From Deltaproteobacteria bacterium (GTDB lineage: Bacteria > Desulfobacterota > GWC2-55-46 > UBA9637), in assembly GCA_016214995.1 (NCBI GenBank), contig JACRML010000027.1, positions 1,766-65,765 on the forward strand: a stretch of DNA of 64,000 nucleotides, given 5' to 3'. The position numbers and the translations under genes were made by a program. Within the stretch, counting starts at the first letter, position 1; every line of letters begins with the position of its first letter. This document shows positions 11,483 through 63,924 of the stretch, piece after piece. Under the pieces are notes generated by a model, which did not search any database, was not told the origin of the DNA, and saw only the letters and a program-made list of their open reading frames with translations.

Positions 11483-12388
11483 TCAACCTAATTCCTCTAT
11501 ATATTTTTCTGCCATAAATGCAGCAATGGCGCCGTCTCCGACCGCCGTTGCTACCTGTTTGAGAGACGTTGTTCTGCAATCGCCTGCTGCAAATATACCT
11601 TTTACCGATGTCTGCATATTCTGGTCGGTCTTTATAAAACCCTGCTCATCTTTTTCAACGTCAACAAAATCGCTTGTCGGATTTATGCCGACAAAAACAA
11701 AAACCCCTTCCACATCAAGTTCTCTTACACTGTTATCCTTGAGATTCTGCAACACAACCTTCTCAACCACTGTCTTTCCTTTTATTCCCTTTAAGACATG
11801 GCTTAAGACCATCTCTATATTTGATGTGGAAAGGGCTTTCTCCTGTATTACCTTCTCAGCCCTGAGTTGGTCTCGCCTGTGGGCAAGATAGACCTTGCTT
11901 GCAATCTTGGACAGGTAGACTGCCTCTTTTACAGCAGTATCGCCGCCGCCGACAACCAAAACCTGCTGTCCTTTAAAAAATGGGCCGTCGCAGGTTGCGC
12001 AGTAGGAAACACCCTTGCCTGTAAATTCTTTCTCTCCGGGAACACCCAATCTTTTTGGTTTTGCACCGGTAGCTACAATTACTGCCTTTGTTGTTAAATC
12101 CCCTTCAGAAGTTTTGATAATCTTTTGTTTGCCTTCATCTTGAATATCCGCAACATCTGCCAGTTTTATCTCAAGCCCAAAACCTCTTGCCTGCTGTTCA
12201 AACTTTTCCATAAGGCCGGCACCGCTTATTGATGGAAAACCAGGGTAATTTTCTATAACATCGCTGACAGCAATCTGACCACCCACCACTTCCTTTTCTA
12301 AAAGAAGTGTTTTAAGCCTTGCCCTCTGGGCATAAATGCCTGCGGTAAGTCCTGCAGGACCTCCGCCGATGATGATGAGATCATACAT
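11483..12388 (-). CDS. trxB: Thioredoxin-disulfide reductase
   Basis: MYDLIIIGGGPAGLTAG FAD motif, redox-active CATCDG, NADPH motif VVGGGDTA. Start at ATG 12388. Confidence 0.92.
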   Translation of the reverse strand: MYDLIIIGGGPAGLTAGIYAQRARLKTLLLEKEVVGGQIAVSDVIENYPGFPSISGAGLMEKFEQQARGFGLEIKLADVADIQDEGKQKIIKTSEGDLTTKAVIVATGAKPKRLGVPGEKEFTGKGVSYCATCDGPFFKGQQVLVVGGGDTAVKEAVYLSKIASKVYLAHRRDQLRAEKVIQEKALSTSNIEMVLSHVLKGIKGKTVVEKVVLQNLKDNSVRELDVEGVFVFVGINPTSDFVDVEKDEQGFIKTDQNMQTSVKGIFAAGDCRTTSLKQVATAVGDGAIAAFMAEKYIEELG

Positions 12389-20282: not shown

Positions 20283-20286
20283 GGCT

Positions 20287-21843
20287 TCACCCCTCCGCCA
20301 TCCTCATCTCAAGTATCCTCTCTATATTAAAAACCCTTTCGTCCATCCTCTTTGTGCAGAATGCCTCTAAACCGAGAAACTTCTTTCCCTGATACTCCAG
20401 TTCTCCCATATATTTCGGGATAATTGTCCTCCTTGTTTTTTCATCCTTTGCCTTGAGATACACAATATCTAATTTTCTTTCTTCCTTTATTGCCAGTTCA
20501 ATCAGGCTAATCCTCTGTTCAAGAGGCTGTCTTTGTTTTGCCCGTTTATACTGATACTTTGTTACAAACTCCACAATTCTCCTGTCCATAAATATATGCT
20601 TCTTCATAATCGGCTTTTTCAGAATAATCCCATCAAGGTTAGTGCACCTTGACAGCGCCACATAAAGCTGCCCATGTGAAAATGTACCCCTGCCTATATC
20701 TATAATCATCCTGTCAAATGTCAAACCCTGACTCTTGTGAATGGTAACCGCCCATGCAAATTTGATGGGATACTGCGTGAATCTGCCTGTAATCTCCGAC
20801 GCTACCATATTTTTACTCCTATCATAATTAAATTCATACATCTCCCATGTGTAAGGCGCAACATCCACGCGCTCCCCGTCAGAGAGTTCCACCCATATTA
20901 CATCAGGCTCATTTTTAATCTTTTCAATCTCAACAATCTTTCCTATGCTTCCATTTATCCACCGTCCGGAAGAATCATTATTTAAGAGCATGACCTGCGC
21001 CCCGACCTTAATCGTAATATCCTCTGCTGTAGGCAAATCCTTTGCCTCAAAGTCTCCGTCAACTAAGCCGTGATACTTATATTCCTTTCCTTGAATCTCC
21101 GATAGTTTTTTCTGGTTGATGTTATCCGCAAGTTCATTTGTTGTAGTTAGGCAGATATAGAATTCCCCATTGTCCTCAAAATCCGGAAGGTGTTTTAAGT
21201 TTATAGCCGTGAAATCATCATCCGTTGCTGTATTATTCCTTATTGCATTCAGGATGTTCAGAAACCTTGCATCTTTCTGGCGATAGACCTTCTCAAGTTC
21301 AATAAATTCCATGTCCAGACCATTTGAAAAGACCTTTGAATCAAAAAAATACGGACTTTTGTAATAATCTGCAAAAATAGTCTTCTCACGGTATCGGACA
21401 ACAGGGGGAAGTTGATAGAGGTCTCCTATAAATATCATCTGTATTCCGCCGAAGGGAAGAGACTTCTTTTTGCCGTGGATCCTTAAAAATATATCTATGC
21501 AGTCAAGAATGTCAGCCCGCACCATGGATATCTCATCTACTACAATGGCATCAAGGTTTTTGTAAATAGATTTATCCCTTGGCCTAATCTTCTTTACGGT
21601 ATCAGGGGTTACATCTATCTTAAAGTTGAAGAATGAGTGGATGGTCTGTGCCTTCACATTCACCGCAGCCACGCCTGTCGGCGCGATAACCGCAATGGCC
21701 TTTTTTGTGCTGTCCCTGAAATGCTGAAGAAGGGTTGACTTGCCTGTGCCTGCCCTTCCTGTAACAAAGACATTCCTGTCCGTATCCTCCATGATATGGA
21801 GGGCTTTAAGGAAGTGTTCATTTAAATCAAGTTTAATAGACAT
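20287..21843 (-). CDS. Pif1/RecD-like SF1B DNA helicase with C-terminal WYL-like domain
   Basis: Walker [10 protein letters not shown], Walker B VVDEISMV, motif [14 protein letters not shown]-terminal ~70 aa ([53 protein letters not shown]) fit the WYL-domain pattern. Confidence 0.8.
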
Positions 21844-22001
21844 AAATAGAGGGGCATACAGGAAGCGGCTGCCTGTATCTGTATCTGGATTTGGATTCTA
21901 TGTTTTGCGATGCAACTGTTCTTAAAACCATATTTTTATTTTGCGTCATATTTTAAATCTTAAACCTTCTTGCTTCTCTCCTCGTCCTGTAATCTTTGCA
22001 G

Positions 22002-22044
22002 TAATGCCTGCCCATAGGTTGATAAAATCGCATATAAAGACAAC
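22002..22044. repeat. ~45-bp direct repeat, copy 1 (flanks the AbrB-PIN module)
   Basis: taatgcctgcccataggttgataaaatcgcatataaagacaac versus copy 2 at 22801. Confidence 0.75.
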
Positions 22045-22063
22045 CATCCCATTTTTTCATATC

Positions 22064-22498
22064 TTACTCACTTTTAAATATCCTTAAAAATTCCGAAGCG
22101 CTTACAATCTTGACAGACTTGTACCTGCCCATATCCAGCAAATCCTTGTCTCCTGTGATAATAAAATCCGCTGATGCAGATACAGCACAGCCAATGAATT
22201 TATCATCATCGGCGTCCCTGCATACTCCTTTGATTTTATCCGTAACTTCAATTACTTCAAAGAAAGGCAGAACTTCTTCCTCAATAATCACCTTCATCTC
22301 TTGTGCTGTCAGAGAAAATTTCGGATATTCAAGAACGGCCTTAAACTCGTCAAAAGTATCTCTGGAGAGAATTGGGATAATCTTGCCTTTTTTCCAAAGG
22401 TCTACGACTCTTGCAAGTTCGCCTTTAAACAGCAGAGACGATATAAGAATATTGGTATCAAGGACTATCTTGACTGCCGCTTTTTCTTTCTTGCCCAT
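22064..22498 (-). CDS. PIN-domain toxin (type II TA)
   Basis: IVLDTNILISSL ... CRDADDDKFIGCAVSASADFIITGDKDLL, the PIN acidic residues. Confidence 0.85.
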   Translation of the reverse strand: MGKKEKAAVKIVLDTNILISSLLFKGELARVVDLWKKGKIIPILSRDTFDEFKAVLEYPKFSLTAQEMKVIIEEEVLPFFEVIEVTDKIKGVCRDADDDKFIGCAVSASADFIITGDKDLLDMGRYKSVKIVSASEFLRIFKSE

Positions 22499-22713
22499 TT
22501 GACTGCCTCGTCAACAACACCTTCGGTAACGCCAAGTTTTTCCAGTTTGTCCCTTATGCCTTCAAGAGCCGCATCAGCAGGGGTTATCCTGACCGGCATA
22601 AGAATTATCTTTCTTTCCTTTACCGAAACATCAAAGTATTCGGCATCAGGGAACGACTTGACGACCTCCTTCGGCAGGGTTAGCTGATTTTTGGATGTCT
22701 TCTTTGCAAGCAT
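22465..22713 (-). CDS. AbrB/MazE/SpoVT-family antitoxin
   Basis: KNQLTLPKEVVKSFPDAEYFDV swapped-hairpin motif. Overlaps the PIN gene. Confidence 0.8.
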   Translation of the reverse strand: MLAKKTSKNQLTLPKEVVKSFPDAEYFDVSVKERKIILMPVRITPADAALEGIRDKLEKLGVTEGVVDEAVKWARKKKRQSR

Positions 22714-22800
22714 ATTTCCTTACCTCCTTACTGTAAGGATACATTATTTAGCCCAAATATTGCAATCATAAAATACAGCCAAAAAGATCCGCATGGTTTT

Positions 22801-22846
22801 TAATGTCTGCCCCCATAGGTTGACACAATCGTATATAAAGATAATC
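22801..22846. repeat. ~45-bp direct repeat, copy 2
   Basis: taatgtctgcccccataggttgacacaatcgtatataaagataatc; about 85% identical to copy 1. Confidence 0.75.
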
Positions 22847-22864
22847 GTTCTCAGTTTATCGCCG

Positions 22865-24250
22865 TTATTCTCTTAATATTATTTCCTCAACCCTCTGTTT
22901 AGCTTTATTAATAATTTCAGATGCCTCTGCTTTAAGCCTTTCAGCCTCTGACATTCGCTTTTTGACTTCTTCAGCGATTTTGTTTTGGATTTCAAGAGGA
23001 GGAAGGAGGAGTTGAATGTTTTTCAATGCGTTTTGACTTAAATGTCCCATAATAGCGCCAGTGCTGATTCTGTTAAATAACTGTTTGGTTATATTACTGT
23101 TCAACCAGATAGCAATATAATGAGGATTCACATTTTCTTTCTTTAACACAACTCTAAATATCTCTGAACTGATTATCGTTCTCTTATGCTCATCATCTAC
23201 AACGACTGCAATTCCATAAGTGCCTTTTCTTGTAATTAATAAATCTCCACTATCTAATTCAATGTCTTTTGATATGTTGAATGCCGGAATGAATTTAACA
23301 TCTATTAAATCAAAAGAATTAGGTTTTATGTTTGATACTCTGAGATATGGAATTCCCGTTTCTGTAAATTCTCGGAAATCTAGTCCGTTTATTATTTTGG
23401 TTGATATTGCCTCTAATGAGTAAGTCTCAAAAGGTGCATGTTGTATCGCTTCCATTAATTCTATAAACTTTGGCTGATAATAATAAGCATCCACTCTATT
23501 GTCCCGCATTTCTTCGGAGTCAACAACAAAGCACATCTTATCCTCAACCTCTGGAAGTTTTATGCCTAATTCGTCAAGGACATAGCTGTCAATAGAATCC
23601 AAAAGCCTCTGCACCTCGGCTTCCATTTGTTTCTTCTGAGAGTATGCAGACTGCATGATGTCAACGATTTTATTTTGAATTGAGAGAGGTGGGAGAGGGA
23701 TAAGTAAATTATTTATGACGGTTCTGTCCAGATAATTTACTGCATTATTTGCTATCAACAGTAAATTCATCTGTCTTTTGCTATTTTCAAAACATAAGGC
23801 GTAAACAATATACTTTGCGTTAATTCCTTCTTTGACCTGAAATCTAAATATACTTCCGTTTACGATTGCTCTTAGAGGTTCTTTCTCTACAAAACACACT
23901 GATTTGTTTGACGCAATCGTTGCTCCCTTTACAGCAAGCAATATATCATTCTGTCGTAATCGTGCTCTTTCATTTTTATTGTAAATCTCAGGTACAGGAA
24001 TTGAATTTGTAAAATCTATTTCAAAATCCGGCATCAATTCGGTTGCTCTCACCAAAAGTATCTCACCACCCTCTGAATAACATTCACTCGGTGGCAAAAC
24101 ACCGTAAGAACCACTGCCGATAATTGCCCCCAACTTGACTGAATATTTTGATTTTATCTGGTCGTTCAAAAAAGATTTAAATTGAGGCGTGTAACTGAAG
24201 GGATCGAATCTTTCTTTTATCTTATCTGCGTAAACAACAAAACACTGCAT
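22865..24250 (-). CDS. Restriction-modification specificity subunit (HsdS/BcgI-B-like, two TRDs)
   Basis: 461 aa with two target-recognition domains, each followed by the conserved helix ...PLPPLSIQNKIVDIM... / ...LLPPLEIQNKIAEEV.... Confidence 0.85.
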   Translation of the reverse strand: MQCFVVYADKIKERFDPFSYTPQFKSFLNDQIKSKYSVKLGAIIGSGSYGVLPPSECYSEGGEILLVRATELMPDFEIDFTNSIPVPEIYNKNERARLRQNDILLAVKGATIASNKSVCFVEKEPLRAIVNGSIFRFQVKEGINAKYIVYALCFENSKRQMNLLLIANNAVNYLDRTVINNLLIPLPPLSIQNKIVDIMQSAYSQKKQMEAEVQRLLDSIDSYVLDELGIKLPEVEDKMCFVVDSEEMRDNRVDAYYYQPKFIELMEAIQHAPFETYSLEAISTKIINGLDFREFTETGIPYLRVSNIKPNSFDLIDVKFIPAFNISKDIELDSGDLLITRKGTYGIAVVVDDEHKRTIISSEIFRVVLKKENVNPHYIAIWLNSNITKQLFNRISTGAIMGHLSQNALKNIQLLLPPLEIQNKIAEEVKKRMSEAERLKAEASEIINKAKQRVEEIILRE

Positions 24251-24251
24251 T

Positions 24252-26026
24252 TTATTTACCCTTCAAAAATTTTATATATTCCTCATAAATCCCGTCAAAA
24301 TCATTTGCCGGGTCTTCTCTGCCAGTAGCGTCATAGCCGATATGTTCGGCTATTGCCATGAAAATTGGATACTTTGTTAATTTTTCATTTTCGCCTTTTC
24401 TTCTTAAAAACACAAGTGAAGATTTAACACCTGCGCCATAATGAGTGAAGGCAAACTGCGGCAGAGATACAACAGCCAATATCTGGCATTTCTCCATTAT
24501 GAAATTTCTCACATACTGCAAGGAGGAGTTTGTTAAAATCCCGTCCGGCAGAACTATTCCAATCCTGCCTGTCTTAGGCTTCACAAATTCAATACAACGC
24601 TCGATAAACATTATTTCTGTCTTCTGATTCTTTTTGCCCTTGCCAAGCTCATACTTTTCTAAATAATTTTTCTCTGTTGATTTGACAGTTGCGCCAAACG
24701 GCGGGTTAGTGAGAATAATATCAAAATAATCCTTCTTGAAGCCTTTATGTATATCCGTAATTTCCTTAATATCCCTTAACGAATCTGTGCTGATTACATT
24801 GGTATGTCCATCATCATGAATAATCATATTCATTTTGCAGACCCTTGCAATCTGGTCGTTAATCTCAATGCCATAAAGATTATTCATGGCAAAATTATGC
24901 CAGTGTTCCCATGCTTCTCTATCGTCATAATTTTCTTCTGCAAACTTTTTGACTAAATCCATGGCATTAAGCAGGAAACCACCGCTTCCACAAGCAGGGT
25001 CTAAGATTAAATCAGTTCTTTCAGGATTTAGCATCTTGATGGCAAATTCAACAATTGGACGAGGAGTAAAGAACTGCCCCATCTTGCCTTTAAAAAAGTC
25101 CTGCATAAATCGCTCGAATGCGACCCCTTTAGTATCCAGATCAATCTTGTTTATAGCCAACTCCTGCAGGTGCTCAACTACATTATAGACAATCTTTGCG
25201 TCTAACCGAATGTCCTCTCTGAAAACCTCTGAGTCTTCCTTTTTTGCTTTTTGATAAATAGAATCAACTCTATCGTAAACTTCTTCTGCTGATTCATGAG
25301 TGCCAATTTGGAATTTGTAGGTATCGCCCTTCTTCGTACCCTTTTCGTCTTTCAGTTTGCAGAAAAGAAGTTTTGAAACTTCGTCAAAAGCTGTTGTTGG
25401 CGCAAGTCTGCCGCCCTGCCAGACAGTGTCGTGGGATTTCTCTAAAGCCCTGATGAGTTCTTCTCTTGAAACGACTTTTAAATCTCTTGCTGGATCGCCT
25501 TTAATGAACCTGTATTTCGGGGTTTTCCCATATCGTACAGAAACATCGGAGATTACATTTCTTTCTCTTTCGCTCGGGTTGAAACCCGCTACATCAAAGC
25601 TAGTTTTTGTTGTGCCGGCAATAACGGCAGCGAACTTTGCCCTTAAGCTGTTTGCATTGCCAAAAGCCTGTTCAATAGCCTGTTTAAATTCAGCATCTGT
25701 GATTCCGTCTTTTTTGCACTCAACAACCAGATAGGGCTTCTTAAGTTCGTCGTCTTCATAGATAACTATATCTGCCCTGTCTTCAGGTTTTCTTCGCGGA
25801 ACAATAACCTCGATGTCTATCTTTTGTTGGGATACTCATAATCCAGAACCAGTTCGGCAAAATAAGATGCCCTTACTTTCTCCTCGGGTTTTTTGAAACT
25901 TGTCGTATAGTCTCGGCTGCAGTGATATGTAATCTTGGAGTTATCAGCAGAAAAGGATATACAACCCTTTTCTACTCCACTTTGGATATTTTTCATAAAA
26001 ATTGAATCGTGATTGCTAGTTGTCAT
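24252..26026 (-). pseudogene. PD-(D/E)xK nuclease + gamma-class N6-adenine methyltransferase fusion (BcgI-A/type IIB-like), frameshifted
   Basis: ORF 25817..26026 ends ...YEYPNKR*. The next frame is open from 25835 to 24252 with no ATG/GTG/TTG until 25160, and reads KIDIEVIVPRRKPEDRADIVIYEDDELKKPYLVVECKK (D...ExK), then FTPRPIV, DPACGSGGFL (motif I) and LTNPPFG (motif IV). The frames overlap at a T4/A4 run (25822-25825). Confidence 0.7.
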
Positions 26027-26431
26027 TTTATAACCTCAATCAATATTTATAAATAATATTTTTGCCGCTCACAGCTGTAATTAGGCACAGCAACCATTAC
26101 CATCTATTCCATCTATCACAAATTTATGCTCAATAGAACATACTCTTGTTGATAAAGCAAAGTATCTCCCCGCTTCCGGCCGAGTTGCTGGAGTCTTTCA
26201 ATAACCTTCAAACTTGTCCCCCGTATCAAGTACGGGGCAGGCTCTGCAAGCCTGCCCTCGAATGCTTCTATCGGGGGTATTAAGCAGGGATCAGTGTCTG
26301 TGGCTTCGTTTATTTTTAGCATAACTATTTAAACAACCCCTCGGTATTGATATTACCCGCCATGTTTGACAAAACAATTTATCTCATGATAGATTGTTCT
26401 ATAAATTCTAACCTTTACCAAGGAGATTATT

Positions 26432-26602
26432 ATGAAATTGCATGTAATAATTGAACAGGATGAGGCAGGTTATTATGTTGCTGAAGTTCCTGCGCTTCCC
26501 GGCTGTCTTTCTCAGGGCAAAACTTATGAAGAAGCTGTGTCCAATATCAAAGAGGCTGTTGAAGCATGGCTTGAGGTAATGGAATCTAAACAGCAGTTAT
26601 AA
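26432..26602 (+). CDS. HicB-like (UPF0150) antitoxin-family protein, no HicA partner seen
   Basis: Not in ORF track (56 aa). AGGAG-N8-ATG, MKLHVIIEQDEAGYYVAEVPALPGCLSQGKTYEEAVSNIKEAVEAWLEVMESKQQL, the canonical HicB N-domain signature. Confidence 0.7.
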   Translation: MKLHVIIEQDEAGYYVAEVPALPGCLSQGKTYEEAVSNIKEAVEAWLEVMESKQQL

Positions 26603-26621
26603 CCACGGTCTACCAGTTCTC

Positions 26622-63332: not shown

Positions 63333-63924
63333 ATGAGCTACTTAAATTACATTCTTATCGGAGCACTTCTTATTATTCCAACTTCTTTTGGGGTATTTGG
63401 AATGGCTACTGAGATGGCCATATCAATAGGTGGCATCGTTGGTGATCTTTTTTTTTGCCAATCTTGAAAAGTTTTCCAAGTTCAAAGGTGCTGGTTTTGA
63501 AGCCGAGATGCATAATGCTGTTAGAGAAACTTATGCCGCACTTGAAGAACTCAAAGAACTTGCCCTATCGCTTTCTGCCCCAATTATAGATGAGCTTGCA
63601 GTTTCTGGAAGAATGCTTCAATACATCCCCCTCAAATATAAACTGGAACGGGTTGAGAAAATAGAAAAAACACTTGCAAAACTCGGGGCTCAAAAAGAAG
63701 AAATAGAAGAGATCTGCTACACCTTTTACAGTCGCGTTCATGATGACCATGTAAAGGCTATACTTAGATCCCTCAAAACAGCGAATCAAGATAAACAAGA
63801 TATACTTAAAGAATTGGAAGAAGGAGATGTTTCTGGCTGGAACGCTGAAAAGCTCCATGACTTTATTGAAACAAACAATATGGTTTGCGACGACCAAGTG
63901 ACTAGAGAACCTCACAGATTTTGA
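63333..63924 (+). pseudogene. Hypothetical membrane-anchored protein split by a frameshift in a T9 tract
   Basis: ATG 63333 gives MSYLNYILIGALLIIPTSFGVFGMATEMAISIGGIVGDLFF and stops at 63465-63467. ORF 63430..63924 continues ...ANLEKFSKFKG in the +1 frame. The junction is T9 at 63448-63456. Confidence 0.45.

Follow-up and report, generated by a model that had tools for sequence, protein, structure and literature searches.

A window of 64,000 nucleotides from a Desulfobacterota genome (Deltaproteobacteria bacterium, GenBank assembly GCA_016214995.1, contig JACRML010000027.1, positions 1,766 to 65,765, numbered here from its first letter) contains a two-gene cassette that probably forms a restriction-modification system of type IIB, of the BcgI/BsaXI kind. 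One gene, RM, encodes a nuclease fused to a methyltransferase, and the other, S, encodes a specificity subunit with two target recognition domains (TRDs). The RM gene is spread over two reading frames, which are one gene broken by the loss of a single base, and the cassette would thus hold a recently inactivated null allele. This reading corrects the annotation that the locus would likely receive: rather than a type I methylase and S gene missing their R subunit, the two genes would be a self-contained, motor-less restriction-modification pair broken by one base.

Evidence for a single broken gene comes from the reading frames themselves and from intact relatives. The 5' fragment of RM, with a Shine-Dalgarno-like GAGGT about 7 nucleotides upstream of its ATG, encodes the N-terminal strands and first helix of the nuclease domain (PEEKVRASYFAELVLDY) and aligns with residues 1-69 of intact homologues. 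An initial annotation, made from the letters of the DNA alone, had described a 69-codon open reading frame (ORF) running to a TAG and a -1 frame open from 25835, and both the ORF list and direct translations agree. That second frame extends to a stop codon at 24252-24254, and its first 225 codons include no ATG, GTG or TTG, the first of these being a TTG at 25158-25160. The premature TAG occupies the position of codon 70 and is caused by a 1-nucleotide deletion in the run of A's at 25822-25825. The initial annotation had also held that the two parts are one gene, which the addition of an A would repair. We refer to the window RM with this one A added, about 591 amino acids long, as the repaired protein. 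A search with it returned thousands of intact homologues of about 595 amino acids, the best with 95% identity over 99% of the length. In these, the junction reads DYEYPNKKIDFEV or DYEYPSKKIDIEV, containing EYPNKKID, and one added A gives exactly the same in the window, as both the protein and the DNA alignments bear out. At the break, the window has AAC-AAAAG and the closest homologue AATAAAAAG. Across about 1.76 kb, the five closest DNA homologues are 84-87% identical to the window, with the 1-nucleotide gap as the sole gap in four of them and two gaps in the fifth (L033).

The domain content of the repaired protein is that of a nuclease-methylase fusion, as the initial annotation had proposed. 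A single polypeptide has both a PD-(D/E)xK nuclease domain and a gamma-class N6-adenine methyltransferase domain, with no ATP motor, and Pfam recognizes them as HSDR_N_2 and N6_Mtase, respectively, the former placing the N-terminal domain within the nuclease superfamily. All four motifs on which that proposal relied are present, namely, RADIVIY, which contains D86, VVECKK, which contains E103 and K105 (25713-25721), DPACGSGGF, and NPPF. Among sequences in the PDB, the best match of the family profile is RM.BsaXI (8w0p_A; E value, 1.6e-54), in an alignment that runs from query residue 22 to 550 against residues 18 to 627 of the chain and therefore takes in the N-terminal domain. Weaker matches are to the methyltransferase subunit of PacII (7vru_A; 4e-24) and to type I HsdM subunits (from 1.7e-22).

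Functional residues known from BsaXI are retained. In the cryo-EM study of BsaXI, alanine at E73, D90, E105 or K107 is reported to abolish cleavage, and type IIB enzymes are said to share these residues (PMC11997821). HMMER aligns them to E73, D86, E103 and K105 in the repaired protein, and all four are unchanged in every sequence of two homologue alignments, with 13 and 36 members. The BsaXI connector, which together with the methyltransferase domain wraps and clamps the DNA, holds the flipped methyl-adenine by H221, N222 and W225, and these align to H199, D200 and W203 in a conserved HDTVWQGG motif here. Structure prediction agrees with the sequence matches. The AlphaFold2 (AF2) model of an intact homologue (P0001), built on a diverse alignment, has a mean predicted local distance difference test score (pLDDT) of 93.7 and a predicted template modeling score of 0.89; an earlier run, whose alignment was shallow and consisted of homologues with 75-95% identity, reached a pLDDT of 60 and was discarded. 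The model shows an alpha-beta-beta-beta-alpha-beta nuclease core, a helical connector and a methyltransferase fold. When it was compared to the PDB with Foldseek, three BsaXI entries came out on top (E values of 3e-29 to 6e-27), followed by type I HsdM (2e-17). RM.BsaXI is therefore the best match by both sequence and fold. Coordinates of these features are collected in Table 1.

Table 1. Positions in the window of the RM and S genes, their domains and motifs, and the codons relevant to the frameshift
Feature	Position	Strand	Remark
RM gene, 5' fragment: codons 1-69 and premature TAG (25817-25819)	25817..26026	-	ATG start
A4 run (plus-strand T4), site of the 1-nucleotide deletion	25822..25825	-	Homologues have AAA-AAG (A5)
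RM gene, remainder: -1 frame, 527 codons; nuclease core, helical connector and methyltransferase	24252..25835	-	95% identity to P0001
PD-(D/E)xK nuclease domain, Pfam HSDR_N_2, residues 47-146	25590..25888	-	Pfam E value 8.4e-15; spans the frameshift
Nuclease catalytic residues	E73, 25809-25811; D86, 25770-25772; E103, 25719-25721; K105, 25713-25715	-	HMMER alignment to BsaXI
Multi-helical connector, about residues 184-334	25026..25478	-	AF2 helices and alignment to the BsaXI connector
HDTVWQGG motif in the connector (H199, D200, W203)	25419-25433	-	Conserved
Gamma-class N6-adenine methyltransferase, Pfam N6_Mtase, residues 298-556	24360..25136	-	Pfam E value 1.5e-45
Methyltransferase motif I, DPACGSGGF	24975-25001	-	
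Methyltransferase motif IV, NPPF	24696-24707	-	
TTG, codon L290, first common start downstream	25158..25160	-	GGAG abuts directly, no spacer
ATA, codon I70, rare table-11 start overlapping the TAG	25818..25820	-	Only conceivable weak termination-reinitiation site; use conjectural
S (specificity) gene, 461 amino acids, two TRDs	22865..24250	-	Intact; begins 1 nucleotide after the RM stop codon

The partner gene fits this picture. The two-TRD S gene that the initial annotation saw next to the methylase does encode two Methylase_S stretches recognized by Pfam, and its product matches the S subunits of EcoKI (4e-21) and BsaXI (2.3e-06). The window S protein is only 35-40% identical to the S proteins of loci whose RM proteins are 74-95% identical to that of the window, and a conserved catalytic subunit with a variable specificity subunit is the usual pattern. 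No exact match to the S protein turned up in public assemblies.

The lack of an HsdR gene, also pointed out in the initial annotation, extends well beyond this locus. We found no ResIII/HsdR match on the window's contig and, in a survey of 80 related loci from named genomes, no HsdR at a consistent position: of the 80, at most 6 have a ResIII-like ORF within 8 kb. Detection in the flanks used a hidden Markov model built from the ResIII domains of the window's own genome, and a heuristic based on Walker A and DExH motifs was dropped, having missed most ResIII proteins of that genome. An S-like ORF lies downstream of RM in 53 of the 67 loci with enough flanking sequence, directly adjacent in 37 of them and separated in the other 16 by 0.26-1.3 kb, apparently occupied by a small gene. 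In one such locus (L001), a 157-aa DUF559 protein with a Vsr-like endonuclease fold is encoded between RM and S (11814-12287); the window has no such gene. Four homologue contexts annotated with Pfam show RM and then S without HsdR, and in one of these four the pair alone is inserted cleanly among housekeeping genes of a 502-kb contig. More distant relatives, at 54-66% identity, are single-chain R-M-S proteins of 825-1186 amino acids with one or two C-terminal Methylase_S domains. At 30% identity stands hsdRM of Trichormus variabilis plasmid D, which has been read as type IIB and which, with hsdS, is reported to block conjugative transfer (preprint 10.1101/2025.10.21.683720).

With a fused nuclease and methyltransferase, conserved catalytic residues, a two-TRD S gene and no HsdR, the cassette has all the type IIB features that can be tested from sequence. 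The A/B architecture of type IIB enzymes suggested by the initial annotation is thus upheld, BsaXI being the best relative, the E-D-ExK residues being conserved and the S gene being separate. The intact reading frame expected of a functional member is absent from the window copy.

Comparison to characterized systems places the cassette closest to BsaXI (PDB 8w0p, 8w2p and 8w2q; PMC11997821), with which it shares the order of nuclease, connector and gamma-class N6-adenine methyltransferase, the catalytic E-D-ExK residues, the H/W methyl-adenine pocket of the connector, and a separate two-TRD S subunit without a motor subunit. The differences are in size and integrity. RM.BsaXI has 916 amino acids, with a knob insertion and a C-terminal paddle, whereas the protein here has about 591 and neither element, and the window copy is frameshifted. 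BcgI, the archetype of type IIB, forms an A2B complex in which A is a type I R-M fusion without an ATP motor and B is HsdS-like, a likeness that we draw by description; the glutamate of its PD...ExK motif is essential for cutting (PMC3592470). BcgI A is 71.6 kDa, compared to about 68 kDa expected here, as estimated from 591 amino acids. While BcgI B is only 39 kDa, the S protein here, at 461 amino acids, is the size of a type I HsdS, a comparison again made by description and not by sequence. TstI- and AloI-like enzymes (PMC4027205) are single-chain type IIB/IIG R-M-S proteins and are paralleled by the 54-66% relatives with Methylase_S fused at the C terminus, whereas S has a gene of its own in the window. 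Type I HsdM and HsdS proteins, such as those of EcoKI (M2S1), share the methyltransferase fold and a homologous S, and public annotation uses the type I name. The cassette differs from them in having a nuclease fused N-terminal to M and no HsdR motor gene, either beside it or in the related loci.

Several points weigh against a type IIB cassette with an inactivated RM gene. Type IIB enzymes are defined biochemically by cleavage on both sides of the site, which for this cassette is a prediction by analogy. We found no characterized member of the clade of approximately 595-residue RM proteins. The knob and paddle elements of BsaXI are absent, and identity to BsaXI is just 21-24% in structural alignments. 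The closest REBASE-derived PADLOC profile carries the label 'Type I methyltransferase'. As for the break itself, the genome is metagenome assembled, 82.5% complete and in 99 contigs, and two exact-pattern scans of metagenome contigs across the frameshift, with either A4 or A5 allowed, did not find the same allele. An error in the consensus or the assembly, or variation within the population, could therefore account for the apparent deletion.

We judge it likely that the deletion is real. In the 1.98 Mb of the genome, only four frames of at least 500 codons have a start-less leader of at least 84 codons, the RM gene being the most extreme, and the window's remaining ORFs appear intact, so indel errors do not abound in the assembly. 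That the gene is nevertheless intact in the organism, with the missing A an error of the consensus or of the assembly, or a minority or majority variant in a mixed population, and with a working type IIB-like system, is an unlikely but serious alternative. In its favor, the defect is a single base in a homopolymer with no other lesion in the gene, the protein is 95% identical to intact homologues, and the ratio of nonsynonymous to synonymous substitution rates (dN/dS) is 0.026. However, systematic errors in short-read assemblies would be expected in longer runs than four or five A's, the other genes of the window are intact, long start-less frames are rare genome-wide, and RM genes are commonly lost in nature through frameshifts. 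A longer homopolymer, a T9 run, lies elsewhere in the window at 63448-63456 (within 63333-63924).

On the model of BcgI (A2B) and BsaXI ((RM)2S), the S subunit of an intact enzyme would bind a bipartite site, one adenine would be methylated in each half-site, and unmodified DNA would be cut at fixed distances outside the site. If the deletion is real, the change from A5 to A4 at codon 69 would stop translation after a 69-residue fragment, stranding the four catalytic residues, the connector and the methyltransferase in a frame without a usable start, orphaning the S gene and abolishing both restriction and modification. The initial annotation had read the break as cutting off the nuclease half. 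The catalytic residues of the nuclease do lose their start, but the connector and the methyltransferase lose it too. Because all three lie in the start-less frame, the whole bifunctional protein is predicted to be lost, and the window allele is most likely a null one for both cutting and methylation.

A restriction-minus, modification-plus state, in which the methyltransferase core starts at TTG 25160, had been put forward instead in the initial annotation, and we consider it improbable. Such a methyltransferase could come either from this TTG (302 amino acids) or from reinitiation at the ATA that overlaps the premature stop (522 amino acids) and would work with S. The S gene is indeed intact, the TTG lies just ahead of the Pfam N6_Mtase domain, which begins at residue 298, and the 522-residue product would retain both connector and methyltransferase. 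However, the TTG is codon L290, and its product would therefore come without any of the multi-helical connector, the element that wraps the DNA in BsaXI and houses its methyl-adenine pocket. The only Shine-Dalgarno-like sequence, GGAG, abuts the TTG with zero spacing. ATA is a very weak initiator, and its product would still have all four nuclease catalytic residues and so would not be cleanly restriction-minus. Weak reinitiation at ATA 25818-25820 is speculative.

The names given to this family raise the further prospect of a variant of type I HsdM that carries an additional domain at its N terminus and would restrict only with an HsdR supplied from elsewhere in the genome, for instance from contig C14 or C20. 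Public annotations and PADLOC (PDLC03030) do call the family a type I M subunit, and HsdR-like ORFs are present on C14 (669 amino acids) and C20 (796 amino acids). These contigs have conventional hsdM genes of their own, though, encoding 503 and 519 amino acids, respectively, the one on C20 adjoining the HsdR-like ORF and the one on C14 about 14 kb off. A type I system calls for a separate HsdR, which combines an SF2 motor with a nuclease and is encoded alongside hsdM and hsdS, and none was found at the locus. The absence of a consistent HsdR in the 80 homologue loci, the invariance of the nuclease catalytic residues under strong purifying selection, the single-chain R-M-S fusions in the same family, and BsaXI as best structural match all argue against a type I subunit, and we regard this reading as very unlikely. 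The two conventional type I-like gene sets, on C14 (19857-21863; 5237-6043) and C20 (10147-12534; 13054-13785), whose HsdR-like ORFs have TGxGKT and DECH motifs, mean that the genome keeps other restriction systems even if the type IIB-like one is dead.

Membership in MADS, the methylation-associated defense system, was also considered. The best NCBIfam matches are to MAD2 (308.8 bits) and MAD5 (103.8 bits), far below the respective cut-offs of 720 and 400, and the remaining genes of the eight-gene mad operon are all missing from the locus, where the neighbors are a Pif1-WYL helicase, a PIN/AbrB pair and HicB. MADS was rejected on both grounds.

A functional frameshift at the A run, whether programmed -1 ribosomal frameshifting or a phase-variable switch, was rejected as scarcely credible: the break does fall in a homopolymer directly ahead of a rare AGA codon and a stop codon, but CAA-CAA-AAG is not an X-XXY-YYZ slippery site, a +1 slip gives the wrong frame, known phase-variable tracts are far longer than four A's, and no homologue shares the shift, all reading straight through.

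When the window copy is compared to L001, dN/dS comes to 0.026 for the gene as a whole and to 0.02 for the nuclease core past the frameshift. Purifying selection therefore acts on the entire bifunctional protein in the family, and there is no sign of additional decay in the window copy. From Nitrospirota, Omnitrophota, Patescibacteria, Bacteroidota and Cyanobacteria to several groups of archaea, RM proteins share about 75-80% identity. In 40 related genomes, the window's own excluded, there was no close copy of RM, the best match having 48% identity.

It is evenly balanced, in our estimation, whether the approximately 595-residue RM proteins form a distinct, minimal type IIB lineage, without knob or paddle and with a type I-sized S, that has spread nearly unchanged across distant phyla and of which the window copy is a freshly inactivated member. 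The clade has a dN/dS of about 0.03 and reaches Patescibacteria and DPANN archaea, and its members routinely go by the names 'type I M' or 'N-6 DNA methylase' in annotation. If such a lineage exists, a large pool of motor-less restriction enzymes with a programmable S lies hidden in public annotation. More broadly, the type IIB anatomy described here is that of a very widespread and highly conserved family labeled 'type I M protein'. Type IIB enzymes serve as useful tools, since they cut out short tags and take on another specificity when S is exchanged. The architecture itself is already known and structurally described, and to this a frameshifted copy from a metagenome-assembled genome adds little.

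The surroundings of the cassette bear on how it arrived. It lies in a low-GC island of 6.3 kb (window 20283-26621) between atpA and atpB of a V-type ATPase operon, with a GC content of 39% compared to about 46% in atpA and atpB. Besides S and RM, the island contains the Pif1-WYL helicase, the PIN/AbrB pair and HicB. Horizontal acquisition of the cassette fits both the lower GC content of the island and the lack of a close copy in the 40 related genomes.

The atpA/atpB junction was compared at four loci, L028 (genome G002), L029 (G004), L030 (G005) and L031 (G007). In the congener G002, the two genes are 24 nucleotides apart. In G007 they are 1.8 kb apart, and between them lie a HepT-like toxin gene and 43 codons left over from the C-terminal end of Pif1, whose product is 100% identical to that of the window. 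In G004, Pif1 is reduced by an internal deletion to a remnant directly against atpB. These arrangements suggest a recurrent hotspot of insertion at the junction, with the 3' end of Pif1 kept beside atpB. Another restriction gene occupies the same neighborhood in G004, where a 1158-aa Eco57I-like type IIG RM is encoded upstream of atpB (L029, 1000-4476), separated from it by two genes for oligopeptide-type ABC-transporter ATPases and the Pif1 remnant.

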